NCBI GenBank assembly: GCA_964572095.1
Contig: CAZNGQ010000001.1
Coordinates: 1 to 39,161 of the forward strand
DNA: 39,161 nt
DNA from: an uncultured Oscillospiraceae bacterium
GTDB taxonomy: Bacteria; Bacillota; Clostridia; Saccharofermentanales; UBA5734
Reading direction: 5' to 3'
Part shown: positions 16,259-36,915 of the stretch, one piece after another
Numbering within the stretch: the stretch's first letter is position 1
Layout: the number at the start of each line of letters is the position of its first letter
Made by a program: the position numbers and the translations under genes
The notes under the pieces: generated by a model
Database searches by the model: none
Told to the model about the DNA's origin: nothing
The model's input: the letters and a program-made list of their open reading frames with translations, nothing else

Positions 16259-17062
16259 TCAGTTCACATCGCCGATATTCATGGTGATGCCTTGATTGTC
16301 GAAATAGTACATGTTGTCATTGTATTGAATCGGAATGCTCAGGCTGCCGACCAGCTCCCTGCCGTCATCGCTCTCCAGATAGGCGTTGATCGTCACCGCC
16401 ATGTCGGCTGTCGGTTCCGGCACGATATCGGAATCGTTGAACGGCGACCAGATGTACTGGCGATCATAGGTCACCTCGTATCCCAGAACCGTCATGATCC
16501 CGTATTTCGAATCGATATCCACCTGCGGCGGGATCTCCTGGGAGACGATGCTGCCCGAACTGGCCAGCACCTCATACAAGAGCTTTCCCTGGGACTCGAG
16601 ATCCCTGCCCATCGCGGCGACAAACTCCAGCCCTCTCCGGGAAGACATCGAAAGCGTGTAGAAATTGTCGACACAGGAGAAACAGATCCCTTCGCTGTTG
16701 ATCTGGATGCCCCAGTAAGCTTCATCCAGTTCGGAACCGGGTTTCGTGAACCGGGTGACCGGGTTCCTGGCTGCCGTCGGGACGATGTACGGATCGGAGG
16801 TTTCCGTACCGGTTCCCGGGCCGGCTGCCGGCCATCGGGCCCGGATCCATCCGAAGCCGCCGGCTGCCTGGAACGCGACGACGACCACCAGTACGGTGAG
16901 CGCGGCATTGACCGCCAATGGCCAGCGGGGATGGCTGCGGCTGGTGCGGAGGACTGTGTCCGGAACGGCTTCGGAACGGATGCGCAGAATGGTTTTCCGT
17001 TTCAGGTCCATCGAGGGGCGGATCCTGTCCAGCACCCTGCGGATGTCGTCATCAGGTTTCAT
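16259..17062 (-). CDS. putative anti-sigma factor: single-pass membrane protein with an unrecognised extracytoplasmic domain
   Basis: Overlaps the 3' end of the ECF sigma gene. It has a short cytoplasmic N-terminus, one TM helix (LAVNAALTVLVVVVAFQAAGGFG) and a C-terminal domain of about 180 aa with no motif I recognise. No HxxxCxxC zinc motif. The start could be 17080 or 17062. Confidence 0.5.
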   Translation of the reverse strand: MKPDDDIRRVLDRIRPSMDLKRKTILRIRSEAVPDTVLRTSRSHPRWPLAVNAALTVLVVVVAFQAAGGFGWIRARWPAAGPGTGTETSDPYIVPTAARNPVTRFTKPGSELDEAYWGIQINSEGICFSCVDNFYTLSMSSRRGLEFVAAMGRDLESQGKLLYEVLASSGSIVSQEIPPQVDIDSKYGIMTVLGYEVTYDRQYIWSPFNDSDIVPEPTADMAVTINAYLESDDGRELVGSLSIPIQYNDNMYYFDNQGITMNIGDVN

Positions 17063-17594
17063 AATTCCATTCACCCCCATGCGGGCGGCCCAGCTTTGCC
17101 CGCGCGCGCTTCAAGCGGCTTCGTACCGTCGATTCCGTGATGTGGAGCAGACGGGCGATCTCCGGAGTCTCCATCTCGAACCAGGCTTTGAGGAGCAGCA
17201 CCTCGCGATAACGGAGGGGCAGGTGGAGGACCTTATCCAAAAGCCGGCTTTCCGACTCCCTAAATTCCAGCCCTGCCTGCAGATCCTCCGGATCCCATGG
17301 CCCGGAGTCGCCCTCATCGCCGCCGATCTCGTCCCGGTATTCCGCACGCGTCCGGAACCACGAGCTGCGCAGCAGGTCCCGGCAGGTGTTGCGGGCAATC
17401 TGCAGGATCCACGCGCGTACATCCGAGTCGCCGCGGTAGGTGTCCCACTTCTCGATCGCTTTGAGAAACGTGTCCTGGAAGGCGTCGTCCGCCAGCCCGT
17501 AACGTCCGAGATAGACGTAGCAGACCTTGTAGACGTCGTTTCCCTGCGTTTCGACCAGGGTCTCCATATCGGGTCCGATGCGTGTTGCGGCCAC
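17052..17594 (-). CDS. ECF-type RNA polymerase sigma-70 family factor
   Basis: Region 2 (FLKAIEKWDTYRGDSDVRAWILQIARNTCRDLLRS) and region 4 HTH (PLRYREVLLLKAWFEMETPEIARLLHITESTVRSRLKRAR). GTG start behind GGAGGA. Confidence 0.85.
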   Translation of the reverse strand: MAATRIGPDMETLVETQGNDVYKVCYVYLGRYGLADDAFQDTFLKAIEKWDTYRGDSDVRAWILQIARNTCRDLLRSSWFRTRAEYRDEIGGDEGDSGPWDPEDLQAGLEFRESESRLLDKVLHLPLRYREVLLLKAWFEMETPEIARLLHITESTVRSRLKRARAKLGRPHGGEWNYET

Positions 17595-17626
17595 ACTCTC
17601 CTCCGGGAACCGGTTCTATCCATAGG

Positions 17627-17772: not shown

Positions 17773-18459
17773 ATGGAAAGCCCGTTGAATTCCATTCGGA
17801 CCGGCATGTTGCTCGATCTTGGACAGACCATTGCCGCAGCGCTGTTTGACAGCATCGAATATCCCTGGCAGGCCTTGGGCGGCATCCGGGATTTCATTCT
17901 GCTGACCGGCCCGTCGCTGCCCGCGGATCTGTACGACCGGGCCGGCGAGGATGTCTGGATCGCGCGCAGCGCCACGGTCGCGCCGACCGCCTGCATCCAG
18001 GGCCCGACCATCATCTGTGATAAGGCGGAGATCCGCCACGCCGCTTTCATCCGCGGCTGCGCGATCGTCGGCCGGGAATGTGTCGTCGGCAATTCGACGG
18101 AACTGAAAAACTCGATTTTGTTCAATGGCGTGCAGGTCCCGCATTTCAATTACATCGGCGACTCCATCCTGGGGTACCACTCCCATCTCGGCGCCGGCGC
18201 AATCACGTCCAATGTGAAATCCGACCGTTCGATGATCCGTCTGACCATCGGCGGCACGCGGCTGGAGACGGGACTCCGGAAATTCGGCGCCATTGTGGGC
18301 GACGACGTCGAAGTCGGCTGCAACTGCGTTCTCAACCCGGGCACGGTGATCGGCAGGAGAAGCAGCGTCTATCCGCTGACAATGGTCCGGGGTGTCGTAC
18401 CGCCCGACAGCATCGTGAAGTCCCGACGCGAAACCGTCCGGCGCGAATCGCATGACTGA
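17773..18459 (+). CDS. left-handed beta-helix (hexapeptide-repeat) acyltransferase, GlmU C-terminal-domain-like
   Basis: Consecutive hexapeptide repeats (IGDSILGYHSHLGAGAITSN..., VGDDVEVGCNCVLNPGTVIG). GGAGG lies 10 nt upstream of the ATG at 17773. The track ORF start at 17638 has no RBS. Confidence 0.65.
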   Translation: MESPLNSIRTGMLLDLGQTIAAALFDSIEYPWQALGGIRDFILLTGPSLPADLYDRAGEDVWIARSATVAPTACIQGPTIICDKAEIRHAAFIRGCAIVGRECVVGNSTELKNSILFNGVQVPHFNYIGDSILGYHSHLGAGAITSNVKSDRSMIRLTIGGTRLETGLRKFGAIVGDDVEVGCNCVLNPGTVIGRRSSVYPLTMVRGVVPPDSIVKSRRETVRRESHD

Positions 18460-19657
18460 GCGCCGCAACGGATATCCCGGCGTCCGGCGCGCCAGGCTGA
18501 TGGTCAGCGCCATCCTCCTGTTCAGCCTGGTCGTGATCCTGGCCAACCACCCCTGGAGCGGCGGGGAAGCCCCGGCATCCACGACGGGCGGCATCCCCGC
18601 GGCCACGACAAAGTCCGGTGTCACAACAGCCGCCCCGACCGATGCGACTGCGACGCCGCCTGTTGCGGAACGCAGCCTGCTGTTCTATCCGCCTGTCCCG
18701 CTCGGCGAACCGGGTGCCGCACAGCCCGAGATGCGCCGCTGGCCGGCCTCGGGGTCCGTCGAGACGGTGCGTGATGTGGACCTGGCCGTCTATGCGGGAC
18801 GCTCCCGGACGGGAAAGCCGCTGGAGGGGATCACAGTCATCCTTGACGCGGGACATGGCGGCATCGATTCCGGATGCGGCTATCCGATCGGCATCCGCAA
18901 TCAGGACATCATGGAAAAGGACGTCGCCCTGTCCGTCGTCACCGCGGCGAAAAAAGAGTTAGCAGAGCTGGGCGCCCGCGTGCTCATGATTCGTGACGAC
19001 GATACATTCCGCTCGATATTCTGCCGGCCCGCGATGGTCGGCCGTACCATCCTGCAGGATTTTACCGGTTTGGCGGAACGAGCCGGCATCGAAGCCGGGC
19101 CGATCGAACGGCTTCTCGCCCCGCTCGTCCCGATCATCGATGCGAACGAAGACACGTTTGCGGGCATCATGGGAGGATCCGGCACACCGCTCGACCTCAA
19201 GCATGTGATGGACATCCAGCGGCAGTATCCGGACTGGCTGTTTATCTCCGTCCACTGCAACGCATCCGAATATTACCCCGACGCGCGCGGGCTTCAGGTC
19301 TATTACGATACCAGCGAGGTCGTGCAGCATGACGAACGGCTGGAGGCGCAGGCGATCCCCTCCTCCGATTGGCAGCCGTCCTACCAGTACTACGACGACG
19401 GCGGCAGGCTGAGGATCGCTTCGCTGCTGTACCATTCCATCTCCACCAAGGTGCCCGCGCTGGGCAATGGCACGCCGTCACCGCTCGTGGACCAGGATTT
19501 CGCCATCCTGCGCGAACAGAATCTGGTGAGCGCAATGATCGAGCTCGGGTTCCTGACAAACGACTCCGACCGCGAGGTCCTGGCATCGGCCGACCGGAGG
19601 GCCGACCTTGGCGAAGCCATCGCCGATGCGGTATACTCCTTCTATTGTGAATCTTGA
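18452..19657 (+). CDS. N-acetylmuramoyl-L-alanine amidase (Amidase_3) with an N-terminal membrane anchor
   Basis: Zn-site motifs VILDAGHGGIDSG and FISVHCNA, plus C-terminal ELGFLTND. TM helix LMVSAILLFSLVVILA. Overlaps the upstream gene by 8 nt. Confidence 0.8.
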   Translation: MTERRNGYPGVRRARLMVSAILLFSLVVILANHPWSGGEAPASTTGGIPAATTKSGVTTAAPTDATATPPVAERSLLFYPPVPLGEPGAAQPEMRRWPASGSVETVRDVDLAVYAGRSRTGKPLEGITVILDAGHGGIDSGCGYPIGIRNQDIMEKDVALSVVTAAKKELAELGARVLMIRDDDTFRSIFCRPAMVGRTILQDFTGLAERAGIEAGPIERLLAPLVPIIDANEDTFAGIMGGSGTPLDLKHVMDIQRQYPDWLFISVHCNASEYYPDARGLQVYYDTSEVVQHDERLEAQAIPSSDWQPSYQYYDDGGRLRIASLLYHSISTKVPALGNGTPSPLVDQDFAILREQNLVSAMIELGFLTNDSDREVLASADRRADLGEAIADAVYSFYCES

Positions 19658-19714: not shown

Positions 19715-20950
19715 TTGAAAGCGAAACCCATTTCGTGTTTCCGTATGAAATCGGCTCGTTCCTGCTTTGCCGTTCTTTTCCTTGCGTCGGCAATCGCGCT
19801 GACCGGTTGCGGCGTGCCGGCGGCGACCACAACCACCGGATCGTTATCCACCACGTCCGCGACCGCCGCCACTTCCCGCACCACGGCCGCCACGAATCGG
19901 ACGGACACAACGTCGACCGCTGCGCCGGAAACGACCGCGACTGCGCCGGCCACAGAACCGACGGCCGTCTCGACAACCATCTACCAGCCGCCGGCAACGA
20001 CCGCCGTTCCGTCGGTCCTGCTGGAGCGCTGGCCGACCGAGTCGAGCCTGCCCCCTCTGTACACTCCCAACCGGGCGAACGCTTCGGCCGCGAAGCCGCT
20101 GGCCGGCATGACGGTTCTGCTGGACGCGGGACATGGCGGCGCCGATCCCGGAGCCGTCGCTGCCGACGGGACCGGAGAGAAAACGATCAACCTGCCGATC
20201 GCGCTCAAGACCCGGACCCTGCTCGAATCCATGGGCGCAACGGTTGTCATGAACCGGACCGACGACTCGTATCTGTCGATCTACTGCCGTGTGGCGAAAA
20301 CCGGCCTGCATATCCTCGGCCGGGCGTCCGGCTTGCCCGGATTTGCCGAGCAGTTCGATCTCTCCACCTACCAGAATGACTTCAACGCCATGATTTCCGC
20401 CAATACGGGCGACCGGGACGGCGCCATGACGGGACGTGGAATGCACCTGGGATTCGGCGTCCGCGAAGAGATCAAAAGGCTGCTGGACCTCGAGCGACAG
20501 TTCACCGACACCATCGTTGTCAGCATCCACGCCAACAGCTCGGGGGCGTCCACGGATGCCCGGGGCCTGCAGATCTACTACGGCCCGACAGAGTATATCT
20601 ACAACGATGAACTGGAAGGGATCACGGAGGACCGCGATACCTATCATTGGGGATATCCGGTTTTCAAGGCGTATACGGGTTACAACGACGCCGCGAGGGC
20701 GAGTCTGGCCGGCAGCGTGTATAGCGCTGTCGCCGGGCTGGTGCCTGAACTTGCCGCAGGCGCAAGTGCGGGCGTACGTGCCGGAAACTACGGGATCCTG
20801 CGGGAGAACGCCTTGACCAACATCCTGGTGGAGACCGGATTCATATCCAATCCCGAGGATCTCGCCATTCTGAAGGACGACGGCAACCAGGACCGGATCG
20901 CACAGGGCGTGGCCAACGGTATTCTGGCCTACTTCACGTCGATCGGCTGA
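19715..20950 (+). CDS. N-acetylmuramoyl-L-alanine amidase (Amidase_3), predicted lipoprotein with a Thr/Ala-rich linker
   Basis: Lipobox LASAIALTGC followed by a T/A-rich low-complexity stretch. Motifs LLDAGHGGADPGA, VVSIHANS and ETGFISNPED. TTG start 5 nt after GGAGGG; the alternative ATG at 19745 has no RBS. Confidence 0.8.
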   Translation: MKAKPISCFRMKSARSCFAVLFLASAIALTGCGVPAATTTTGSLSTTSATAATSRTTAATNRTDTTSTAAPETTATAPATEPTAVSTTIYQPPATTAVPSVLLERWPTESSLPPLYTPNRANASAAKPLAGMTVLLDAGHGGADPGAVAADGTGEKTINLPIALKTRTLLESMGATVVMNRTDDSYLSIYCRVAKTGLHILGRASGLPGFAEQFDLSTYQNDFNAMISANTGDRDGAMTGRGMHLGFGVREEIKRLLDLERQFTDTIVVSIHANSSGASTDARGLQIYYGPTEYIYNDELEGITEDRDTYHWGYPVFKAYTGYNDAARASLAGSVYSAVAGLVPELAAGASAGVRAGNYGILRENALTNILVETGFISNPEDLAILKDDGNQDRIAQGVANGILAYFTSIG

Positions 20951-20983: not shown

Positions 20984-21595
20984 TCAGTTTACCAGACGGA
21001 TGAGTCCCGCTCCGGCCAGCCCGACGAGGCCGGCGGCGACCAGAAGGGCCGGTGTTCCCTGCATGCAGGCGGGGATGCCGGCCGTTTGCATGCGGTCACG
21101 GATCGCTCCCAAAAGGGCCAGCAGGAGGACGCAGCCGCAACAGGATCCCAGCAGGAACACGGCGGAGGGCAGGAACGCCATGGCGGACAATCCGCGATCC
21201 ATGGCCGGATACAAGGCCAATGCGCCCGCCAGCAGATAGATCCGCGCATATCCGGATGGCTGCCGTTCAGCAAGACCGGACTTCAGGGAGTCACTGATCC
21301 GCCTCAACAGGAACGATATGCCGCTGAACAGCGCGAGCAGGACCAGCGGTCCCAGCAAGGCGACCGGGACCACCCCATGCAGGACGCGCAGAATGATCTG
21401 TGCCGCCAGACCGCCGGGCAGCGCGAATACGGCAACCTGCAGCCCGGTACCCAAAGCACTTTTCACGAAATCAGGACAGTGGTCCGCGTCGGCCGGGAAG
21501 AGGCCGGGCAACGTGAACAGCGGTGAGCCGATTCCGATAACGGCGATCAGGAAAAGCAGGGGAAGGCTGGCGGTCAGTTCCGGTAAAGCGGTCAT
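20984..21595 (-). CDS. rnfA: Rnf/Nqr RnfA-like integral membrane subunit (divergent)
   Basis: 203 aa with about six TM helices, in the last position of a C-D-G-E-A gene order. HCPDF resembles the conserved LCPF motif. The C-terminus (IPACMQGTPALLVAAGLVGLAGAG) resembles the RnfA tail. The start ATG overlaps the rnfE stop (ATGA). Confidence 0.6.
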   Translation of the reverse strand: MTALPELTASLPLLFLIAVIGIGSPLFTLPGLFPADADHCPDFVKSALGTGLQVAVFALPGGLAAQIILRVLHGVVPVALLGPLVLLALFSGISFLLRRISDSLKSGLAERQPSGYARIYLLAGALALYPAMDRGLSAMAFLPSAVFLLGSCCGCVLLLALLGAIRDRMQTAGIPACMQGTPALLVAAGLVGLAGAGLIRLVN

Positions 21596-22227
21596 TGTCC
21601 TGAACCTCCCGCGGACATGCCGCGTCCTTTTCCGGACAGCCAGCGCAGGCCGCCCAGCGTGAGACCGGCCAGGATCAATCCGACCGGAATCGAGACGGCC
21701 AGGTCCGCAATACGGGTTCCCGCATCCACAGATCCAAAGAACGTGCCGTACAGGATCCCTTCGCGCAAAATGCCGATCGAAACCAGGACGATGCAGAAGA
21801 AGGCGCCGGTACCGGCCAGCCGCAGGGGCACCGTGTAAATCGGGCCGTCGTTTTCGTCGTTCAGCAGGGACAAGGACTGGACAAGCAGCAGCAGCGGGGC
21901 GGCCAGCATCGGAAGCGGATGCGCATCCACCGGGATCCAGCCCGGCAGGCGGGCGACCAGCCAGACGAGCGAAGACACCGCACACCCGATGGCCACGACC
22001 GGAAGACGGCCACGGGGGAAGCGGCTCCAGCGGCGAAGCAGCTGAAGGGAGCACCAGGTAAGCAGCAGGACCGCCAGCGAGGATATCCCGACCGCCAGCG
22101 CGCTCCAGGCGTGCCCGGCAGCGGCGACCGCCGGGTAGGCGATCGCGAGGCAGGTCAGCCCTGCCGGCAGCCTGTCCGGATCCAAGTAAATCGGGATGTT
22201 GCCTTCCGACATATCGGGTTCGTTCAT
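21592..22227 (-). CDS. rnfE: Rnf/Nqr RnfE-like integral membrane subunit (divergent)
   Basis: 211 aa and polytopic. ILREGILYGTFFG resembles the RnfE 'REllG.G.l' motif. It sits between the rnfG-like and rnfA-like genes. Confidence 0.6.
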   Translation of the reverse strand: MNEPDMSEGNIPIYLDPDRLPAGLTCLAIAYPAVAAAGHAWSALAVGISSLAVLLLTWCSLQLLRRWSRFPRGRLPVVAIGCAVSSLVWLVARLPGWIPVDAHPLPMLAAPLLLLVQSLSLLNDENDGPIYTVPLRLAGTGAFFCIVLVSIGILREGILYGTFFGSVDAGTRIADLAVSIPVGLILAGLTLGGLRWLSGKGRGMSAGGSGQ

Positions 22228-22251
22228 GTCAGCCTCCTGTCCCGGACCGCA

Positions 22252-23622
22252 TCACGATCCGGCGTCCGCCTTCGCGGAGAGAATCCACACGACATACTCG
22301 ACGGCCAGATTGGCGGCCTTGACAACCGCGCGCGACGTGACGGTCGCGCCCGACACCGCGTCGATCAGTCCGGACGCGAGGGCCGGCGTCGGTGTCGCCG
22401 CGGCAACCGCGGACATGCCGGCCTGCAACATGCAGCCGCGCATCAGGTCGAGCGCCGCCGAGACGGGTACCACGACGCCGGGTACTTCGGGAGCGCGGCC
22501 TTCGGAATCGACGGATACGACGGTGGGATCCTGCAGTTTCATCAACCAGGCGGCCATGGCCGCGGCCTGCTCCCCCCATGGGGCGCTGCCCTCGGGTACG
22601 CCGCCGCCGTCTTCCGCATCCGATCGCAGGCTGCCGTCCTCTCGCTCCGCATTCCAGACGATCGACACGATTTTCTCTTTCTCGATCGTGAGTTCGACAA
22701 AATCACGATAACCGGTCGCGGGGTCGAACTGCTCCTGCTGCGCCCGGAACAAGCCGTCGTTGAGCGTTCCGGTCAGGAGGGAGGGGATTGCCGCCTGCGC
22801 CGTACAGGTCTCCGCCAGCGTGACGAACGGCGCGACGGGAATCGTGACGCCTTCCGCCGCTCCGGTGGTGCCGTCGGCATTCACCAGGATGAAGGCGGGA
22901 TCGCCGAGCCGGATCAGAAGGGCCTCCATCGCGATGGCCTGTTCGTGCCAGGGGAGAGCGCCGTCCAGGATGTATTCGCCGTCCTGCGATGCCTTGCGGA
23001 GCGATTTGCCGCCGTCGTCGCGGACCGCGTCCCAGAGTGCGTCCGCAATACGGCCGCCCGACACTTTCATGGTGAATGTGTGGCGGTAGCCGGTCGCGGG
23101 ATCGGCAGCGGCGTCTTCCGCGGAATAGGTGCCGTCCCGCAGTGTCCTCGGCTCCGGATCGGCCGGAGGCTGTTCTCCGCGCAGGTACAGGGGAGCGGTA
23201 CGGCCTTCGAACTGGGTATGGAACACGGGGAGGGTGACGCGGCCGCCGGTCGACTCCGGTTCACCGTGGGACGCGACACGGGCGCCAAGCACCTGGTGGC
23301 CTGTCTTGTCCACCGCCACGCGGACGGTCAGGTCACTGGCGTAGCCGGGAACCTCGACCAGCAGGACATAGCCCAGGCCGCCTCCGTCGGAGGACAGCGC
23401 CTGATGGATATCCAGGATGGAGCGGGCCTTGGTGAATGTACCATCGACAAGCAGGCTTTTATACGTGTCCGCAGGAACCAGATCCTGAAAATCCTCCAGC
23501 AGCCGGCCGTACTCCCGGTTGCGTTCCCGAATGGAGCCGACCGCGTTCATGCCGGCCAGGAGCCCGATCGACACCGCGGCCATGACGACGAGATGGATCA
23601 GCTGCCTACTTCGACTTCTCAT
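22252..23622 (-). CDS. rnfG: RnfG-like FMN-binding subunit, expanded by two inserted tandem FMN_bind-like modules
   Basis: N-terminal TM helix. The RnfG-type N-lobe is (GYVLLVEVPGYASDLTVRVAVDKTGHQVLGARVASHGE). A canonical flavinylation motif DAVSGATVTS lies near the C-terminus. AGGAGG lies 8 nt upstream of the ATG at 23622. Confidence 0.75.
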   Translation of the reverse strand: MRSRSRQLIHLVVMAAVSIGLLAGMNAVGSIRERNREYGRLLEDFQDLVPADTYKSLLVDGTFTKARSILDIHQALSSDGGGLGYVLLVEVPGYASDLTVRVAVDKTGHQVLGARVASHGEPESTGGRVTLPVFHTQFEGRTAPLYLRGEQPPADPEPRTLRDGTYSAEDAAADPATGYRHTFTMKVSGGRIADALWDAVRDDGGKSLRKASQDGEYILDGALPWHEQAIAMEALLIRLGDPAFILVNADGTTGAAEGVTIPVAPFVTLAETCTAQAAIPSLLTGTLNDGLFRAQQEQFDPATGYRDFVELTIEKEKIVSIVWNAEREDGSLRSDAEDGGGVPEGSAPWGEQAAAMAAWLMKLQDPTVVSVDSEGRAPEVPGVVVPVSAALDLMRGCMLQAGMSAVAAATPTPALASGLIDAVSGATVTSRAVVKAANLAVEYVVWILSAKADAGS

Positions 23623-24532
23623 ATCGTGAGCCTCCTGTTCCGCTGGGTCTGGAGCGGGTGAAACGTTCAATGAGGGGGGAGGCGGCGTTCAGGACCAGGA
23701 TCGCCTCGAAGATTCCCGCCGGTGCCGTTCCCCACAGAATGAACAGGGCTGTCAGGAAACCGGTGCCCAGGCCGAACACCAGCCGGCCGACGCGCGTGGC
23801 CGGTGACGTGACCGGATCGGTCACCAGGAAAAACGAGCCGAGCAGGAGGCCCCCGCTGAAGAGGAACGCGACGGGATCGCCCTGAAGCAGGTATTCGCCG
23901 CCGAATGCCCAGTAGAGGAATACGGCGGAACCAAGGCTGGCCAAAGGCGCGGTGAGCAAAATCACCCCGCGCAGGTAGAGGTACGCCGCGCCCAGCAGCA
24001 GAAGCATGGCCGGCGCGGCTCCGATGGCGCCACCCGCATCGGCCGGCCCGCGGGTAAGCAGGCGGAACAGGTCCGAGCTCGTGTCGACGGTCGGAGACAG
24101 GAAAGCCGCAGGCCACACCAAGGCGATCACCGCGCGTCCGGCCAGGGCGGGGTTGAGGAAGTTTCGCCCCAGTCCGCCGAACAGCGACTTGACCACCAGA
24201 ATTGCAAACAGGGCGCCGACCGCGACGGCGGGCAGAGAAATCCCGGCCGGCAGGGTCAGCGCCAGAATCAGGCCGGTCACAGCCGCGCTTCCGTCGGACA
24301 CGGTCATCGGCTTCCGTCGCGCCAGACAGACGCAGCATTCGACACCCAGACAGACCGCGATGGAAACGGCCAGGACGGCGAGCGCGCGCATCCCGTTGTA
24401 AAAGATGGAACCGATTACGACCGGCCCAAGCGCGATCAGGACATCGCGCATCATGCCGGCGGTCGTCCAGTCCCGCGTGATGTGGGGGAAAGCGGCAGGT
24501 TCGCCCTGGATATCGCTTTTCAGCTTTCTCAT
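23606..24532 (-). CDS. rnfD: RnfD/NqrB-family membrane subunit
   Basis: Motifs DGSAAVTGLILALTLP, KSLFGGLGRNFLNPALAGR, FLVTDPVTSPAT and ILVLNAASPLIE. The start ATG overlaps the rnfC stop (ATGA). Confidence 0.8.
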   Translation of the reverse strand: MRKLKSDIQGEPAAFPHITRDWTTAGMMRDVLIALGPVVIGSIFYNGMRALAVLAVSIAVCLGVECCVCLARRKPMTVSDGSAAVTGLILALTLPAGISLPAVAVGALFAILVVKSLFGGLGRNFLNPALAGRAVIALVWPAAFLSPTVDTSSDLFRLLTRGPADAGGAIGAAPAMLLLLGAAYLYLRGVILLTAPLASLGSAVFLYWAFGGEYLLQGDPVAFLFSGGLLLGSFFLVTDPVTSPATRVGRLVFGLGTGFLTALFILWGTAPAGIFEAILVLNAASPLIERFTRSRPSGTGGSRYEKSK

Positions 24533-25836
24533 GACAGGACACCTCCGCCGGCGGAGAAAATCCGGGGCGCCAACCGGCGTTTCGCGGGGCAGGCGTACGA
24601 GCAGGCGCCGCATCCCGTGCAGACTTCGGGGTGCAGTTCCCGGATCCGTTCAGGGTCGTCGAGAAGAATCCGTTCATCGATCCGGTAGGGAAGAAGCTTC
24701 TCCGGACAGGCGCGCACACAGGCGCCGCAGCGGATGCAGACCGTCTCGGTCTCGGCAGGGGCCGGGAGGGCCAGGACAGCGGACGTGGAGGCGGTGACGG
24801 GCGTATCCCGCGACACCACCCGGCCGGTCATCGGGCCTCCGGCGACCAGGCGGTCGGACGCGTCTACCATCCCGCCGCGGAAAGCGACCAGTTCGCCGAC
24901 CGGCGTGCCCAGCGGAACGAGCACGTTTTGCGGATCCCCCATGCGGCCGCTGACCGTGACCACACGCCGGATGACCGGCATGCCGGTTTTTGCCGCGTCA
25001 TGAAACGCGAAGGCCGACGCGACGGGAACAACCAGCGCCCCGACATCCATGGCGCGCCCCCCCGCGGGAATCTCGACGCCAAGCGCCGCACGGACAAGGG
25101 AACGCTCCCCGCCCAGCGGGTAGATGCTTTTCAGGATCGAGATCCGGACATCGGTGCCCTCCACGGCGATCTTCAACGCCTGGATCGCCGCCGGACGGTC
25201 GTCCGGAAGGCACAGGACCGGGATGGCGGCTCCGGCCGCGCGCGCCAGGAGCCGCGCCGCAAAGACCGCCGGGATGGCGTTTTCACGCAGCGGGGCATGC
25301 ACGCAGGTGACATAGGGCTCGGACTCGCACGCGTCGATCAGGACGTACTCGACCGAACGGTCCATCCCGTCCCGCGTGAAGTCACGGTGGAGAGGGCTTG
25401 CGCTGCCGTCCATCCGGACCGCGCCGGCCTCGCGCATCATTCTGCGGATTTCGGCCGGTTCCAGACTCTGGGCGATATCCGCGCCGCCCAACCGGGTGCG
25501 GCGCGGCAACCCGGCGGCCGGTCGGCTGCGCCGGTTGTTCTCGATGGTGACGCAGACAGCGGGTCCGTCGGGGGTTTCGCGCCGGCCGATTCCGGTGATC
25601 CGCCCCGAGACGCTCGCATGGATGGCGACCATGTCATCATCGACCGGTTCCCCGATCACCTGGCCGAGAAGCACTTCGTCCCCCTCGGACACGGCGGCCC
25701 GCACACCGGCACGTTCCGGAAGCGGGATATGGACGGTTTTCGGGGTATAGGAAACAATGCTTTTACCATCGGTGAGCTTGCGCCCGTCATGCCCCTCCAG
25801 TGGTTGTATTCCGAAACGCAGCAGTCGGACAGGCAT
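24529..25836 (-). CDS. rnfC: RnfC-like subunit (barrel-sandwich N-domain, SLBB-like middle domain, 2x[4Fe-4S] C-domain)
   Basis: N-domain ...VAIHASVSGRITGI; DACESEPYVT; YPLGGERSL; AGGPMTG. Two ferredoxin motifs, CIRCGACVRACP and CTGCGACSYACP. GGAGGTG RBS. Confidence 0.8.
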   Translation of the reverse strand: MPVRLLRFGIQPLEGHDGRKLTDGKSIVSYTPKTVHIPLPERAGVRAAVSEGDEVLLGQVIGEPVDDDMVAIHASVSGRITGIGRRETPDGPAVCVTIENNRRSRPAAGLPRRTRLGGADIAQSLEPAEIRRMMREAGAVRMDGSASPLHRDFTRDGMDRSVEYVLIDACESEPYVTCVHAPLRENAIPAVFAARLLARAAGAAIPVLCLPDDRPAAIQALKIAVEGTDVRISILKSIYPLGGERSLVRAALGVEIPAGGRAMDVGALVVPVASAFAFHDAAKTGMPVIRRVVTVSGRMGDPQNVLVPLGTPVGELVAFRGGMVDASDRLVAGGPMTGRVVSRDTPVTASTSAVLALPAPAETETVCIRCGACVRACPEKLLPYRIDERILLDDPERIRELHPEVCTGCGACSYACPAKRRLAPRIFSAGGGVLS

Positions 25837-25848
25837 GAGGCACCTCCA

Positions 25849-27051
25849 CTAGGATCCGTAGATCCGGTCCGTCAGCACGGCATCGATACCCGGTGTGGAC
25901 TCGACACGGCCGCCGGGAAAGATCCAGATGGCGTCTATGCCCTGCATCGAATCCACGAGCGCCCGTCCCGTTTCATAGGGCAGCAGGAAAAGCGTCGAAG
26001 ACAGGAAATCGGACAGTCCGCAGTCATCCGTGAAAACCGACACCCCCCGGAAGAACGTCGCCGGCATCAGGGTGTCCCGGTCGATCAGATGACTGTAGTG
26101 GACGCTTCCCACCGTATAGTAGTTCTGGTAGTCGCCGCTGTTGCCGATCGTCCGGTCGTTCAGCATGGCGACGGCGGCATAGTCCGGCTGGCTCTCCGCC
26201 GATTGGCCGGTCTCCGGCAGGAGCGCCGACGGATTCTGCATGCCGATGCTCCAGGTCTCCTTGCCTTCCTGGAACGGACGCCCGTGCAGGATGATGCTGC
26301 TTGCTCCGCAACTGATCAGGAAAGACTGGAATCCCGCATCGGCCAGTTCCCGTTCGACGATCTCCGCGGCGAATCCCTTGGCGACCGCACCGACATCGAG
26401 CCGGATGCCGGCCTTGGCGACCCGGACGGTTCCCGCGGCCCGGTCGACCACGAGGCTGTCCATTCCGCTCGACGCGGCCGCCGCCCGCAACGCAGCCATA
26501 TCCGGCAGTACCGCGCCGGACGGATCGTTCCTGCCGGCTTTTCGGGCTTTCGACCAGATGTCCAGCATCGCCCCGAGCGTGATGTCGACCCGGTTGCCGA
26601 TGGTTTTCTGCTTGTCCTGACAGAATTCAAGCAGGTCGATGATCTCCGGGGCGACCGTGACTGCGGGACCGCCGGCCGCTGCGTTGACGGTATGGAGATT
26701 GTTCAGCCCGTCATAGGGGTTGTAGATATCGAACAGTCTGTTCAGTTCGGTGAACCGGACCTCCGCCATCGAGGCGAACCGGTCGTAATCCTCCTGGGAG
26801 CCGCAGTAGGCGATGAGGGAGATCACAGTGTCGAACAGGCCGACGATGTCGCTGGAATACCGCTGATAGCCCGCGTATTCGCCGGTGCCGGTCGTTGCCG
26901 TCCCGGACGGGTTCGCATTGCCGCACGCGAGCGGAGACGAGAGGAGTGCCAGGCACAGGAGCAGGCAGGGCAGAATGCGAAGACGATGCCTTCGCACGTG
27001 TTTTACCATCCCAAACGGTCTGTTTCCACTGTTTTTCATCGGCATACCCAT
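25849..27051 (-). CDS. apbE: ApbE-family FAD:protein FMN transferase, predicted lipoprotein
   Basis: Lipobox LLSSPLACG. ApbE motifs DVGAVAKGFAAE, IGNSGDYQNYY and YSHLIDRDTLMP. It lies 12 nt upstream of rnfC. Its first ATG shares a base with the CE15 stop (TGATG). Confidence 0.85.
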   Translation of the reverse strand: MGMPMKNSGNRPFGMVKHVRRHRLRILPCLLLCLALLSSPLACGNANPSGTATTGTGEYAGYQRYSSDIVGLFDTVISLIAYCGSQEDYDRFASMAEVRFTELNRLFDIYNPYDGLNNLHTVNAAAGGPAVTVAPEIIDLLEFCQDKQKTIGNRVDITLGAMLDIWSKARKAGRNDPSGAVLPDMAALRAAAASSGMDSLVVDRAAGTVRVAKAGIRLDVGAVAKGFAAEIVERELADAGFQSFLISCGASSIILHGRPFQEGKETWSIGMQNPSALLPETGQSAESQPDYAAVAMLNDRTIGNSGDYQNYYTVGSVHYSHLIDRDTLMPATFFRGVSVFTDDCGLSDFLSSTLFLLPYETGRALVDSMQGIDAIWIFPGGRVESTPGIDAVLTDRIYGS

Positions 27052-28112
27052 CAGGTCACGTCCAGAAAGAAATCCACGATGGCGTTCCAGTCCAGTACGT
27101 TCTGGGCATGTCCGCCGTCGCGGTAGTAAATGGCGTTCCGCCCGGGCACGCCGAGCAGGTCGAACACCGGCTGGGCCGCGCGGCTGGTGACGCCGCTGCC
27201 GACCGGATTGGACCAGTAGTCCTGGTTGCCTTCGGTTGTAATCAGCGCGCGGGGGGCGACCAGGGCCTTGAGGGTGTGCAGGTCAAAGGGAAGCCGGTCT
27301 TCGCGGCCGGAGAACGTGCGCAGCCGGTCCGCAAACCAGAACGGGAAGGCGCCGGTGATGTTGCCGAGCGTCTCGGCCTTGGGATCCATGTCCGCCGCAA
27401 ACCGGAAGCATCCGGCTCCGCCGCAGCCCGAACCGCTGGAGGTGACGACGTCGATCCGCTCGTCGAAGACGCCGGCGCAGGTGGTCGCCTTTCCGCCGCG
27501 GGAATGTCCCATGATGCAGATGCGCGGCCTGGGCGCGCCGTCCCCGCCGCGGGCCGCGATCCAGCTGTCGACCGCCATGTGCCCCCACGCCCAGGCGGCC
27601 AGGCATTTCAGGTGCAGGGAAGGGAAGCAGGGATACAGGCCAAGGCTCATGTCGTCTCCATCCGGCGCGACATCCGTGCGGTTGAACGTGATGAGCTCGA
27701 TCCCCTCGGCGACCAGCCGGTCCTCGATCGGACACGGCTCCAGGTGGTTTCCGCTGTTTTTCACGATGACCCGGGCGCCGACCGGTTTTGCCGGCAGGAC
27801 CTGGGTCGCGCGGAACGAGAAGTCCCGTCCGGTGTCGCCGACATCCCGGATGTTGATCCGGAGGAGGTTCACGGTCCGGTCTCCGCGCGACGGCAGCGTT
27901 CCCAGGATCTCCGCATCGACACGGTCGGGTATCGGCGGGATATCGCCGAACAGGTAGTGCTCTGCCATCGCCTTGAGCCGGCCGGTTTCCGCCGTCCATT
28001 GACCGGCGGTCGTGATTTTCTTGCCGTCCGGCGTTCTCAGCAGGTCGGGCAGCGCGACGACCGACGGCAGCGCGTCCGCCTCCTGGAAGCCGTATTTGTC
28101 CTTGTCGTACAT
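27051..28112 (-). CDS. CE15-like (glucuronoyl-esterase family) alpha/beta hydrolase with no signal peptide
   Basis: Nucleophile motif GHSRGGK (family consensus G-C-S-R-x-G-K). N-terminal LPDLLRTPDGKKITTAGQW resembles the CE15 N-terminus. DGGHAQ lies near the C-terminus. AGGAGG precedes the ATG at 28112. Confidence 0.75.
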   Translation of the reverse strand: MYDKDKYGFQEADALPSVVALPDLLRTPDGKKITTAGQWTAETGRLKAMAEHYLFGDIPPIPDRVDAEILGTLPSRGDRTVNLLRINIRDVGDTGRDFSFRATQVLPAKPVGARVIVKNSGNHLEPCPIEDRLVAEGIELITFNRTDVAPDGDDMSLGLYPCFPSLHLKCLAAWAWGHMAVDSWIAARGGDGAPRPRICIMGHSRGGKATTCAGVFDERIDVVTSSGSGCGGAGCFRFAADMDPKAETLGNITGAFPFWFADRLRTFSGREDRLPFDLHTLKALVAPRALITTEGNQDYWSNPVGSGVTSRAAQPVFDLLGVPGRNAIYYRDGGHAQNVLDWNAIVDFFLDVT

Positions 28113-28172
28113 GAATCCTCCTGACGTCCGGCCGACGCGAAAGCGGCCCGGACACAATCATGCCGTCCGCCG

Positions 28173-28688
28173 CTACTCGACAAACACGGCGGAATACCAG
28201 TTCTGTGGTTCATCCGGACCGGCCAGCGTCCGGATCGGCAGGCCAAACGCCCGAACGGTCTTGAACACATCGATGCCGACACTGTGGAAGGCCGGGCGCG
28301 CCTGCTTGGGAAAGCGGCACGGCTCGCCTGTGGCACATCCCGCGCAGGGGTCGCAGAGCGCGCAGTCGGACATCGAAAACGCGAAATAGTATCCGTCGAC
28401 AAACGCCTGGCGCTCGATTGACAGGGAAACCCGCTGGGCCGTGCGCTTGTCGCCGGAGTGGATGATGATCCCCCAGCGGTAGTTTCCGAGCATCTCGCGG
28501 TACTGCTGCGGCGACGGCGATCCCGGCCTTGACGGGCAGGTCGGCCCCTTGCCCCAGTCGGCGCAGCCGAACATGCACTTGAGGAGTGTGCGAGAATCGA
28601 ACGCGATGTCAGCCAGATTGAATGCGACGGCGTCCGTGGCGCCTTCCCGCAAGGCCGCCGAAATGTATTTGTCCCGATCTTCGATCAT
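28173..28688 (-). CDS. DUF2284-like predicted metal-binding (Cys-rich) protein
   Basis: Cys clusters CMFGCADWGKGPTCP and CALCDPCAGCATGEPC, followed by RPAFHSVGIDVFKT as in DUF2284/COG5423 proteins. Confidence 0.65.
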   Translation of the reverse strand: MIEDRDKYISAALREGATDAVAFNLADIAFDSRTLLKCMFGCADWGKGPTCPSRPGSPSPQQYREMLGNYRWGIIIHSGDKRTAQRVSLSIERQAFVDGYYFAFSMSDCALCDPCAGCATGEPCRFPKQARPAFHSVGIDVFKTVRAFGLPIRTLAGPDEPQNWYSAVFVE

Positions 28689-29647
28689 ACGAGTCCGCTC
28701 CCTTCGAATCCTTCGCCCAGCACCTCGCGGGTCTCCATGACGGTGACGAAGGCATTTGCGTCTTCTTCGTGGACAATCTGCTTCAACCGCTGGATCTCGT
28801 TGCGGGTCACGACGCAGATCAGCACCTGCTTGCCGTTTCCGGTGTACATCCCCCGCCCGTTCAACCCGGTGACGCCGCGTTTGATCTCGTGCAGGATGCG
28901 GGCGGCGATCGCGTCGCCGTTGTCCGAGATGATGGTCACGGACCGGCGGTAGTCGAAGCCTTCCAGTACGAAATCGATGGCCTTGGACGTCAGGTACATG
29001 GCGATCGCGGAGTACATCGCAAGGATGAAGCCGGTGTTCGCCACGTCCATGTAGGCCATGGCCGAGGCGAAGATCACGACCGCGTCCAGCACCCAGAGCA
29101 GCTGGCCGATGCTGAGCGCCTTGCTGTACTTGCGGATGATCACGGCGATGATGTCCGATCCGCCCTGCGTAAAGCCCTTGCGCATGACGATGCCGATACC
29201 GACCCCGTAGACCACGCCGCCGACGACGCAGAACAGCACCGGATCGGGGGCTCCTCCCGCCGGCGCCGCAAGGAACCGGTCATAGACTCCGGCGAAAAGC
29301 GGGTTGGTCAGGTCGATGACGAGCGCATAGACCGCGGTGCCGATCAGGCTTCGGACGACAAACCGGCGGTTGACGATCAGCATGCCCAGGAGGAACAGGG
29401 GAAGATTGAACAGGAAGACCATGGTACCGAACGGGAGGGGGATCTTGTGGCCGGCCAGCTGATAGATGATCGATACCACACCGGTGACGCCGCCCATGGT
29501 CAGGCGGACCGGAACAAAGAAGACCGTGATCGCGAACGCGCAGACCACGGAGCCGGTGATCAGCATCCCGGCTGGAACCAGCGCCTTTTTTGCGCCTTCG
29601 GCCAAACGACGCGCCCTCGGCACCATCCGGGACCTCCTGTGATTCAC
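28685..29647 (-). CDS. YitT-family membrane protein with a C-terminal DUF2179 domain
   Basis: Polytopic N-terminal part with GGSDIIAVII. The soluble tail (VTIISDNGDAIAARILHEIKRGVTGLNGRGMYTG...VVTRNEIQRLKQIV) is typical of DUF2179. Overlaps the DUF2284 gene by 4 nt. Confidence 0.8.
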   Translation of the reverse strand: MNHRRSRMVPRARRLAEGAKKALVPAGMLITGSVVCAFAITVFFVPVRLTMGGVTGVVSIIYQLAGHKIPLPFGTMVFLFNLPLFLLGMLIVNRRFVVRSLIGTAVYALVIDLTNPLFAGVYDRFLAAPAGGAPDPVLFCVVGGVVYGVGIGIVMRKGFTQGGSDIIAVIIRKYSKALSIGQLLWVLDAVVIFASAMAYMDVANTGFILAMYSAIAMYLTSKAIDFVLEGFDYRRSVTIISDNGDAIAARILHEIKRGVTGLNGRGMYTGNGKQVLICVVTRNEIQRLKQIVHEEDANAFVTVMETREVLGEGFEGSGLV

Positions 29648-33668: not shown

Positions 33669-33698
33669 AGTATAGTCGGCGGTTCACAGGGATGTCAA
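33669..33698 (-). promoter_or_regulatory. candidate sigma-70 promoter driving the T-box/metG transcript
   Basis: On the minus strand: TTGACA, an 18-nt spacer, then TATACT. The -35 element overlaps the stop-codon region of the upstream hydrolase gene. Confidence 0.45.
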
Positions 33699-36600: not shown

Positions 36601-36865
36601 CGAGCATACCGTCCTTTTTGGCCTTGTCGACACAGAACCGGATCAGGCGGAAAAAAGAATCCGACAGGTAAGGGGTCGCCATGCCGGTGCGGACATGCAT
36701 GTGGAATCCGCCGAACCCCATCTGCTTGAGCGTATCGATGCCGCGCTGGAGGAGATCCTCGTCCAGTTCACAGTTCCAGGACCAGAACGGCGTTCCCCGG
36801 TATTCCGGATCGGGGCGGAGGAAACGTTCCATGGCGACCGGTTCCTGGGCATGCGGATACAGCAT
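33695..36865 (-). CDS. large glycoside hydrolase-like protein (GH106-like / 'glycosylhydrolase-like jelly-roll' type); specificity unknown
   Basis: The N-terminus (YRGTPFWSWNCELDEDLL...GFGGFHMHVRTGMATPYLSD...WLYDEDRWPSGAAGG) matches the pattern I associate with this family of roughly 1000-1100 aa cytoplasmic hydrolases. GGAGGA lies 7 nt upstream of the ATG at 36865. No signal peptide. Confidence 0.65.
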   Translation of the reverse strand: MLYPHAQEPVAMERFLRPDPEYRGTPFWSWNCELDEDLLQRGIDTLKQMGFGGFHMHVRTGMATPYLSDSFFRLIRFCVDKAKKDGMLAWLYDEDRWPSGAAGGLVTRDPAFRARHLLFTRRPYGPDDRVRTVTKGSTSAPLRTGNGRLIARYDIVLDHAGDLSTYRRIGPDESPQGFVCHAYLETAAENPWFNNETYVDTLNPAAIRKFIEITHERYLKAVGEEFGRVVPAIFTDEPQFTHKTVLDFTDSETDVILPWTDDLPESFGAAYGEDLLERLPELFWELPGRRVSTVRYHYHDHIAERFARSFADQCGAWCRRNGLMLTGHMMEEPTLESQTRALGEAMRSLRGFDLPGIDILCNRHEYTTAKQAQSVSNQNGNPGVLSELYGVTNWDYDFRGHKLQGDWQAALGVTVRVPHLAWISMAGEAKRDYPAAIGRQSPWYLQYPFIENHFARVNVAMTRGRPLVRIGVVHPVESYWLRFGSNERTRLEREQMDRDFLSLTEWLLFGQIDFDFISESLLPAQCPAGGNPLRVGVMAYDTIVVPPVGTLRTTTLERLEAFAGQGGRLVFLGGPPELADARPDDRGQALWNRSVRLPCQRFALLEELEPCRDIDIRDGDGSRAEDLLYRMRQEEDGNRWVFLAHGRDPAQPDVVHPRMLRIRIKGEFRIESWNTQDGTAVSLPVVRDAGWTAFETAWYEHDSLLLRLLSGADASGQAAPADGVGRIPFTVPRRIGNVYLGGENTLPFGQRVPVTLEEPNAAVLDLPEVSLDGGSFAPREEVLRADNRLRRILSWPSREESVAQPWTMKPEKPAHRVTMRFRFRCSEAVGGARLALEDASRAKIRLDGKRVRKTPVGFYVDESIETIPLPKLGKGRHVLEVEVPFGRKTNLEALYLIGDFSVRLRGCEVSLGRPVRRLAFGDIVGQGLPFYGGNLVYHLDVRTRTTGAVLRVPRYRGALLDVAVDGQPAGRIVYSPYTLDLPGLHPGNHRIDIRLYGMRYNTFAQLHNADDTMEWFGPNSWRTVGDSWTYEYRLKPAGILKSPDLYEKTAKQTEVR

Positions 36866-36915
36866 GGCGGAATCCTCCTTGGATTCATGGAGTGAGGCGA
36901 TACGGTCTGTTCCCA

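Follow-up and report, generated by a model that had tools for sequence, protein, structure and literature searches.

The Rnf complex (RnfCDGEAB; structures 7ZC6, 8AHX and 9ERI) passes electrons from ferredoxin (Fd) to nicotinamide adenine dinucleotide (NAD+, reduced form NADH) along a path that runs through RnfB, the iron centre of RnfA and RnfE, the flavin mononucleotide (FMN) of RnfG, the FMN of RnfD, riboflavin, the second and then the first [4Fe-4S] cluster of RnfC and the FMN of RnfC (PMC9588780). According to a recent review, the cofactors of the membrane subunits are "strictly conserved" between RNF and NQR (PMC12174285). Here we describe a cluster of six Rnf-related genes in a 39,161-nucleotide contig (CAZNGQ010000001.1, an uncultured Oscillospiraceae bacterium), hereafter the window, in which two of these cofactors appear to be missing, judging by the motifs that would hold them. 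Its subunits are marked with a prime where they are told apart from their canonical counterparts. With canonical Rnf the cluster shares homologous C, D, G, E and A subunits in the order C-D-G-E-A, the two [4Fe-4S] motifs of RnfC, the riboflavin-site residues of RnfD, the flavinylation motif of RnfG and the dependence on ApbE. It differs in having no RnfB, in the loss of the A/E iron ligands and of the covalent FMN site of RnfD, in a remodelled RnfC loop, and in two FMN-bind2 domains inserted into RnfG. We somewhat favour the view that it encodes an Rnf-derived half complex, a one-way electron wire through RnfC', RnfD' and RnfG' in which A' and E' would be a redox-inert scaffold.

Several described systems also depart from the canonical plan. 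Na+-NQR likewise goes back to an rnf-like operon that lost rnfB, and NqrA, its counterpart of RnfC, no longer has the NuoF-type site; there, however, NqrF replaced RnfB, the iron centre in D/E survived together with the two covalent FMNs, and the iron-sulfur (FeS) clusters of NqrA were lost (PMC12174285), whereas in the window RnfB is unreplaced, the A/E centre and the FMN of RnfD are lost and the RnfC clusters are kept. NQR/RNF-like systems consist of an RnfD-like domain fused to an NqrF-type NAD-binding domain together with an FMN_bind subunit (PMC8238504, PMC10979944); in these two-subunit systems the flavinylation Thr of the RnfD-like domain is not conserved, and the flavin of the RnfG-like subunit has been proposed to reach the RnfD-like flavin site (PMC10979944). 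They resemble the cluster in being incomplete derivatives of Rnf/Nqr that offer one path across the membrane, with a non-conserved RnfD-like Thr, a flavinylated RnfG-like partner (in the window, by its motif), an association with ApbE and a proposed one-way transfer from the cytosol to the outside. In contrast to these systems, which have no RnfC, RnfA or RnfE, carry the fused PF00175 domain and occur for the most part in Actinobacteria and the candidate phyla radiation, the cluster lies in Clostridia, retains RnfC as a subunit of its own with FeS clusters, along with vestigial A and E subunits, and lacks PF00175. ApbE and an FMN_bind partner beside an RnfD-like subunit without the conserved Thr are thus present in the window, and the RnfD-PF00175 fusion is not. 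RNF clusters with a multi-flavinylated RnfG have been published (PMC8238504) and have in common with the window an enlarged RnfG, an often adjacent apbE and the idea of a path extended to extracytoplasmic acceptors. In theirs, FMN-bind1 domains are repeated in tandem and bear several canonical SGAT motifs, and the operons are complete, E, A and B being normal, whereas the window has FMN-bind2-type inserts, non-canonical sites and no B. Finally, extracellular electron transfer (EET) of the Listeria type (FmnB/PplA/EetAB/Ndh2/DmkAB) likewise pairs an ApbE-type transferase with PplA-type (FMN-bind2) domains outside the membrane of a monoderm. In the window, in contrast, the membrane input is derived from Rnf and not from Ndh2, demethylmenaquinone and EetAB, and the PplA-type domains are inside RnfG and without [S/T]GA[S/T]; no Ndh2, EetA/EetB or demethylmenaquinone synthesis genes were found in the 39-kb window.

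By the published operational definitions the cluster is therefore neither an RNF, which in the large flavinylation survey requires RnfB, nor an NQR/RNF-like system, which requires the fusion. Literature searches for an RnfB-less Rnf subtype returned nothing relevant. An earlier note on this DNA had left room for the exact architecture to be a known Rnf subtype. The concept does have precedent (PMC8238504, PMC10979944): one-way partial NQR/RNF-like systems and the multi-flavinylated RnfG are already known, and what appears new is a rare, lineage-restricted derivative of Rnf. Since it falls outside the survey definitions, it would pass for an ordinary Rnf when the metabolism of Clostridia from anaerobic digesters and guts is reconstructed, and such mislabelling would lead to wrong conclusions on the balancing of ferredoxin and NADH and on energy conservation.

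According to the list of open reading frames (ORFs), the six minus-strand genes are tightly packed between positions 20984 and 27051; they encode ApbE, RnfC, RnfD, an enlarged RnfG and very divergent homologues of RnfE and RnfA (Table 1). The order, overlaps and gaps given in the earlier note all agree with this list. The D, G, E and A products are also listed, with identical boundaries, in a public protein collection whose genes were called independently.

Table 1. Features of the Rnf-like cluster, its upstream neighbours and the sister-lineage clusters; positions refer to the window unless a locus is named.
Feature	Position	Strand	Remark
apbE	25849-27051	-	12-nucleotide gap to rnfC
rnfC	24529-25836	-	ATGA overlap with rnfD
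RnfC residues 138-153, GAVRMDGSASPLHRDF	25378-25425	-	in place of the canonical glycine-rich FMN/NADH loop GIVGMGGAGFPTHVKL
RnfC residues 168-180, DACESEPYVTCVH	25297-25335	-	in place of canonical NGAECEPYLTxDH
RnfC [4Fe-4S] motif 1, CIRCGACVRACP	24703-24738	-	motif scan and canonical alignment
RnfC [4Fe-4S] motif 2, CTGCGACSYACP	24586-24621	-	motif scan and canonical alignment
rnfD	23606-24532	-	17-nucleotide overlap with rnfG-like gene
RnfD residues 146-159, SPTVDTSSDLFRLL	24056-24097	-	shortened loop replacing the canonical DAV(S/T)(S/G)ATPLA flavinylation site
rnfG-like, 456 amino acids	22252-23622	-	N-terminal transmembrane helix and RnfG-type FMN-binding core split by two FMN-bind2 (PplA/Tp0171-like) inserts; 24-nucleotide gap to E-like gene
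RnfG insert 1, about residues 161-286	22765-23142	-	site aligned with the flavinylated Thr of the PplA type reads xG[V/I/L][T/S], a non-canonical motif; in the window EGVT (Thr260)
RnfG insert 2, about residues 287-402	22417-22764	-	site PGVV in the window
RnfG core flavinylation motif DAVSGAT, residues 421-427	22342-22362	-	(S/A)GAT in all homologues
E-like (E'), RnfE-derived membrane subunit, 211 amino acids	21592-22227	-	both Fe-ligand Cys replaced (Tyr31, Ser118); ATGA overlap with A-like gene
A-like (A'), RnfA-derived membrane subunit, 203 amino acids	20984-21595	-	first Cys position Cys40 (HCPDF), second Cys replaced by Leu126; end 33 nucleotides from the stop (20950) of a convergent amidase gene
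Upstream co-directional trio	27051-29647	-	YitT, DUF2284, CE15-type esterase
YitT/DUF2179 membrane protein	28685-29647	-	upstream of DUF2284 gene
DUF2284 Cys-rich predicted metal-binding protein	28173-28688	-	between YitT and esterase genes
CE15-type (GCE_fung) esterase	27051-28157	-	directly upstream of apbE
Sister-lineage clusters	L005:2775-8247, L010:7400-13454		apbE-rnfC-rnfD-rnfG (one or two FMN-bind2 inserts), then fused E/A of 344-361 amino acids

The most conspicuous absence is that of RnfB, as the earlier note had pointed out. A six-frame scan of the 39-kb window for CxxCxxCxxxCP returned two motifs, both in RnfC, and annotation of all other genes of the window revealed neither RnfB nor any other ferredoxin-like protein. 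Nor does an rnfB follow A', or the fused E/A gene described below, in any of the seven related loci that extend that far (L001, L004, L007, L092 and L093 of the window's lineage, L005 and L010 of a sister lineage), so that the RnfB expected with an RnfABCDGE ferredoxin:NAD+ oxidoreductase accompanies the complex neither in the window nor in these seven loci. The convergent gene after A' is present in relatives as well, and the same junction recurs in independent assemblies. Among the approximately 72 nearest canonical RnfD loci, rnfB stands directly after rnfA wherever the contig reaches, the exceptions being L031, where no rnfB was detected, and L065, where rnfA-rnfB lies upstream.

The loss of RnfB is matched in the subunits that would accept its electrons. 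E' and A' are genuine yet extremely divergent homologues of RnfE and RnfA. E' has no Pfam or NCBIfam match, and A' has no Pfam match and only a weak, sub-threshold C-terminal match to RsxA in NCBIfam; in a single-sequence search of the PDB, E' matched RnfE with an E-value of 0.075 and A' matched RnfA (9eri_A) with 4.8e-5. A word-indexed search with E' returned only the window's own protein. Canonical RnfE is beyond the reach of single-sequence search, and profiles were therefore needed. Reference alignments were built from 72 RnfE and 73 RnfA sequences of canonical operons among the nearest RnfD loci; with hhalign, the E' family aligned to the RnfE profile over 187 columns (probability 99.4%, E-value 3e-21) and the A' family to the C-terminal 120 columns of the RnfA profile (probability 96.9%, E-value 1.6e-10). 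The AlphaFold2 (AF2) model of E' (predicted local distance difference test, pLDDT, 72) had RnfE or NqrD as all of its top 11 Foldseek matches in the PDB, with query-normalised template-modelling scores of 0.53-0.60. The earlier note had called every subunit highly divergent, which overstates the case: RnfC and RnfD are clear members of their families, and divergence is extreme in E and A only.

The four RnfA/E cysteines ligate the intramembrane iron centre that receives electrons from RnfB (PMC9588780, PMC12174285), and the canonical pairs, GMCP and VNC in RnfE and GICP and TNC in RnfA, are present in 71-73 of the 72-73 reference sequences. At none of the four positions is a Cys conserved across the six family members. 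Tyr31 of E' is invariant among the six, no Cys of E' is, and the E' of L007 contains no Cys at all. Cys40 of A' is unique to the window, the sole invariant Cys of A' lies in another helix, and the A' proteins of L004 and L092 have a single Cys each. Because the cysteines are not conserved in relatives, the earlier note's suggestion of candidate cluster-binding cysteines in these subunits is unsupported.

RnfC' (435 amino acids) is the most conserved subunit of the family, at 70-74% identity. It scores 278 bits against TIGR01945, above the cutoff, contains RnfC_N, Complex1_51K, SLBB and Fer4 domains, has 7zc6_C as its best PDB match (4.6e-62), and its homologue is named RnfABCDGE subunit C at NCBI. 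An alignment with 73 canonical RnfC sequences shows all eight FeS cysteines in place, and both CxxCxxCxxxCP motifs are retained in all members. The loop that binds FMN and NADH is a different matter, and the earlier note was right to call it degenerate: the NuoF-type site (GxGGAxFPxxxK, NxxECEPY) is absent, and RnfC' reads RMDGSASPLHRD and DACESEPY instead, the near-invariant glycines and Phe, Thr and Lys of the loop being swapped for Arg/Tyr, Asp, Ser/Arg/Lys, Leu and Asp. A search with RnfC' gave eight clusters at 65-100% identity followed by a drop to at most 38%. The change from GMGGAGFPTHVK to RMDGSASPLHRD is found in all eight family clusters and the derived loop is absent from the next-nearest matches, which, where readable, carry the canonical GxGGAxFP. 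Given that the loop has been remodelled into a family-invariant motif, the donor is probably not NADH bound at a NuoF-type site.

RnfD' (308 amino acids) matches only PF03116 (8e-76), with 7zc6_D as its best PDB match (8e-54). Measured against 74 canonical RnfD sequences, in which the ATP of the flavinylation motif is near-invariant, the flavinylation segment is deleted, no D-x-x-S/T-x-A-T remains and there is no acceptor Thr left, in agreement with the earlier note. The motif is likewise absent from L001, L004, L007, L093 and L094. The residues that line the FMN of RnfD in 7ZC6 (Asn90, Glu185 and Ser284) are altered in the window, and Asn124 and Asp248 (7ZC6 numbering) of the riboflavin and ion site are kept, as LNPAL and VTDPV; the roles of all these residues are taken from the canonical structure (PMC9588780).

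At the outer side of the membrane the flavin machinery has been kept and enlarged. ApbE has a full-length Pfam match (1.9e-47) and a hydrophobic N-terminal signal ending in Cys (PLAC|G), and signal and Cys are found in all five homologue N-termini compared; it is probably an extracytoplasmic lipoprotein flavin transferase. RnfG', the enlargement of which the earlier note had observed, is anchored by a transmembrane helix (residues 11-29), and its FMN_bind domain carries the flavinylation-motif Thr. Pfam and NCBIfam place an N-terminal RnfG match, a PplA-model match at residues 160-206 and an FMN_bind match split across residues 309-441. The two insert copies, of approximately 125 residues each, separate the N-terminal half of the RnfG core from the SGAT helix, and are homologous to two-domain lipoproteins of the PplA/Tp0171 type (P0013, 1e-31; P0014, 6e-22; model NF041941, 4.4e-10). 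The AF2 model of RnfG' (pLDDT 87) matched RnfG and NqrC, including 7zc6_G, and the small FMN-bind-like domains 2kzx and 3o6u in Foldseek. Domains of the inserted type constitute the "FMN-bind2" subtype, described as working in pairs (PMC10979944). In the alignment, the T/S at the site of insert 1 is conserved in nine of nine homologues. An Ala-to-Val exchange in the ApbE motif is reported to lower flavinylation to about 50% and not to abolish it (PMC12052999), so insert 1 may still be flavinylated. The site of insert 2 varies among relatives (V, D or T), and it is probably not flavinylated. Elsewhere, in the uncultured organism of L006 (2250-6670), the two-domain PplA-type lipoprotein P0013 has canonical SGAT/SGAS sites, and its gene adjoins those for a Pyr_redox_2 (Ndh2-like) protein, a UbiA prenyltransferase and a polyprenyl synthase, making up a Listeria-like EET locus.

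The same arrangement was found in at least seven other metagenomic loci. It is rare, with approximately 8-10 sequence clusters among 5.8 billion. An exhaustive HMMER search with E' yielded only 8 clusters among 1.84 billion representatives, and a search with RnfG' about ten, at 46-60% identity and all from metagenome bins of Clostridia. The order apbE-C-D-G'-E'-A' is complete in L001-L004 and L093 (although the L093 contig breaks off within apbE); in L007 and L092 the stretch G'-E'-A' is available, and the L094 contig breaks off within E'. Comparison of the window with its relatives would be saturated, so the ratio of nonsynonymous to synonymous substitution rates (dN/dS) was taken from the closer pair L004/L093. 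It is 0.07 for C, 0.19 for D, 0.13 for G, 0.29 for E' and 0.19 for A'. All five genes are thus under purifying selection, and the operon is not a decaying one.

How such a complex might arise is suggested by a sister lineage. A survey of RnfD among GTDB species representatives covered the 80 closest loci, which also supplied the reference sets. Except for L009, which belongs to the window's lineage and is the same contig as L003, and L010, all are C-D-G-E-A-B operons of the canonical kind, whole or truncated. In L010, and in L005, rnfG is followed by a fused E/A gene without an rnfB after it (Table 1); the N-terminal half of the fusion aligns to E'/RnfE (about 92% probability) and the C-terminal half to A' (76%), and the protein is poor in Cys, the conserved set being missing. 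This lineage keeps the canonical NADH loop of RnfC and the DAxSSAT flavinylation motif of RnfD. Being RnfB-less yet canonical at both sites, it looks like an earlier stage, an evolutionary intermediate in which the input arm is gone and the wire from NADH to the outside would be intact. A stepwise route, along which the window's lineage has gone further, is plausible.

The survey and the searches also turned up other rearranged Rnf loci. Two further partial clusters without RnfC, G or B (L091:5312-9217 and L089:2-2517) comprise, in one case, a gene for an 898-amino-acid protein whose N terminus is an RnfD domain, and after it RnfE- and RnfA-like genes and, in the other, RnfD-RnfE-RnfA followed by a NusG_II-domain protein; P0020 from these clusters keeps the GLCP Cys and P0021 has Ser there. 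RnfD ORFs of 512-590 amino acids with no separate RnfG before RnfE (L059:1583-3121, L067:9908-11527 and L068:4225-5997) are apparently RnfD-RnfG fusions in otherwise canonical operons. RnfG proteins of about 400-419 amino acids (L012, L023, L034, L053, L056 and L083) and 299 amino acids (L055) have a tandem duplication of FMN-bind1, several with two SGAT-type motifs, and match the published multi-flavinylated class; their operons are complete rnfCDGEAB (cut after rnfA in L023), with apbE mostly just upstream and, in L056, downstream. The six larger of these RnfGs were considered as direct precursors of RnfG' and rejected, as they are tandem FMN-bind1 duplications and not FMN-bind2 insertions.

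The earlier note had read the cluster as an Rnf-derived conduit and not a ferredoxin:NAD+ oxidoreductase. The losses and retentions seen across relatives fit and strengthen this reading, and it is from them, together with gene content, homology, conservation and selection, that we infer which cofactors are occupied, which way electrons travel, and from what donor to what acceptor. In the half complex that we favour, the input arm would have been removed: RnfB is absent, the iron ligands of A' and E' are gone, and both subunits were most likely kept as a redox-inert membrane scaffold. The joint loss of RnfB and of its acceptor site in A/E gives a coherent account of why rnfB became dispensable. 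Electrons would start from the cytoplasmic [4Fe-4S] clusters of RnfC' and pass to a flavin bound non-covalently in RnfD', where the residues of the riboflavin site are still present. They would then reach the covalent FMN set by ApbE on RnfG', outside the membrane; with the covalent FMN of RnfD' lost, the flavin of RnfG' would have to reach that of RnfD' directly, as proposed for the two-subunit NQR/RNF-like complexes (PMC10979944), which this loss mirrors. Finally, the pair of PplA-type flavin-binding domains in RnfG' would hand the electrons to an extracytoplasmic partner. The donor is the weakest point of this scheme. Candidates are a ferredoxin-like protein docking on the FeS domain of RnfC' or a new ligand in the remodelled pocket, and the conservation of that pocket argues for a new ligand or for a protein partner of the FeS domain.

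Several points weigh against a wire of this kind. The loss of cofactors is read from motifs. With the FMN/NADH site of RnfC remodelled, the wire may lack an input; at the other end, no gene for an extracytoplasmic reductase that might serve as acceptor lies nearby, and the non-canonical xGV(T/S) site of insert 1 may or may not carry a flavin. Without the FMN of RnfD, electrons could have too far to travel from the FMN of RnfG to riboflavin, unless the subunits pack differently. The search for rnfB covered the 39-kb window and the related loci, with the rest of the host genome outside it.

Of the alternatives, one keeps the same components and reverses the flow, so that an extracellular donor would reduce RnfG' and RnfC' would pass electrons to a cytoplasmic FeS acceptor, perhaps aided by the membrane potential or by an ion gradient acting on RnfD'. 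Canonical Rnf is reversible (PMC12174285), the record titles of the relatives point to anaerobic samples of the digester and gut type, settings with electron transfer between species, and the residues of the proposed ion and riboflavin site of RnfD are retained. However, nothing in the sequence sets the direction, no partners of the uptake type (cytochromes or hydrogenases) are encoded nearby in the window, and comparable flavinylated FMN-bind systems in the literature have mostly been read as exporters (PMC8238504). We consider inward flow unlikely, and give the same low standing to a complex that still uses NAD(P)H, in which the remodelled pocket of RnfC' would bind flavin and nucleotide in a manner other than that of NuoF and drive an exporter like that of the sister lineage and the NQR/RNF-like systems. 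RnfC' still matches Complex1_51K and SLBB, the canonical site persists in the sister lineage, and the invariance of the new loop in the most conserved subunit suggests a working ligand site over decay. Against this, the near-invariant Gly, Phe, Thr and Lys of the loop have been replaced, and an Asp in the phosphate-binding turn would speak against the binding of FMN.

It is less probable still that no electrons cross the membrane at all and that the cluster is a relic, or has been repurposed, for instance as an ion or flavin transport module or as an envelope scaffold of Rnf-like shape. Several canonical cofactor sites are lost or altered together, E' and A' have no Pfam match, and the surroundings are rich in cell-wall genes (two amidases, glmS, glmM and cdaA). 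Yet all genes are under purifying selection, and the eight FeS cysteines of RnfC, the SGAT of RnfG and a dedicated ApbE are kept in all members; the synteny of the neighbourhood stems from common descent within one lineage and does not extend to the sister lineage. Least probable is an ordinary ferredoxin:NAD+ Rnf with an rnfB at another place in the genome or missing because the assembly is fragmented. Although the 39-kb window is one contig from a metagenome-assembled genome and NCBI labels the RnfC homologue as RnfABCDGE subunit C, there is no room for rnfB between A' and a convergent gene 33 nucleotides away at a junction repeated in independent assemblies, the RnfA/E ligands that take electrons from RnfB, the FMN site of RnfD and the FMN loop on the NAD+ side are gone or remodelled, and most of the roughly 72 nearest canonical loci have rnfB right after rnfA, with exceptions that are mostly cut contigs or an upstream rnfB.

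Returning to the half complex, we propose, tentatively and with less confidence than the wire itself, that it represents a third fate of Rnf beside canonical Rnf and NQR: a naturally minimised complex that has shed the ferredoxin-input arm and the covalent FMN of RnfD, with a new, non-NuoF ligand or partner site in RnfC and with an RnfG whose PplA-type domains would provide an extracellular outlet in monoderm Clostridia. The coupling mechanism of Rnf and Nqr rests on a semicircular path over the A/E iron centre and the two covalent FMNs, and a scaffold that remains under selection without the input arm or the FMN of RnfD is a natural experiment that sets the parts for electron transfer against those for ion coupling. 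If the proposal is correct, the RnfC-RnfD-RnfG half works alone as a transmembrane wire, a natural dissection of the Rnf/Nqr mechanism, and if the electrons are exported, it adds a further membrane module for flavin-based EET in Gram-positive bacteria.

Whether apbE truly leads the operon, as the earlier note had it, is uncertain in the window's lineage, because three co-directional genes are packed directly 5' of it. The junctions from YitT through DUF2284 and the esterase to apbE are a 4-nucleotide overlap, a 15-nucleotide gap and a 1-nucleotide overlap, and the trio may be co-transcribed with the cluster, in which case the transcription unit has nine genes and not six. Promoter and terminator scans gave no informative signal in the high-GC region of the cluster. 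The trio is syntenic in L001 and L004 and is not found upstream of the sister-lineage clusters L005 and L010. DUF2284 was considered as the missing cytoplasmic partner and set aside, its synteny being confined to the window's lineage and absent in the sister lineage, and no function being given for it in the literature; a role as a cytoplasmic redox partner is speculation.

The other genes of the window are housekeeping or carbohydrate genes, with the cell-wall neighbours named above. The end of the cluster is met by tandem paralogous Amidase_3 (N-acetylmuramoyl-L-alanine amidase) genes on the plus strand (18452-19657 and 19715-20950), both with Thr/Ala/Pro-rich N-terminal linkers and syntenic in all relatives of the window's lineage. 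A 1091-amino-acid ORF on the minus strand (33695-36970) has a coding-like codon bias and no Pfam match, and an unannotated protein of similar size is present in L001 to L003. Also on the minus strand (16259-17615), a gene for a sigma factor of the extracytoplasmic function (ECF) type (Sigma70_r2/r4_2) is followed by an overlapping 283-amino-acid ORF without a Pfam match, which may encode its anti-sigma factor.

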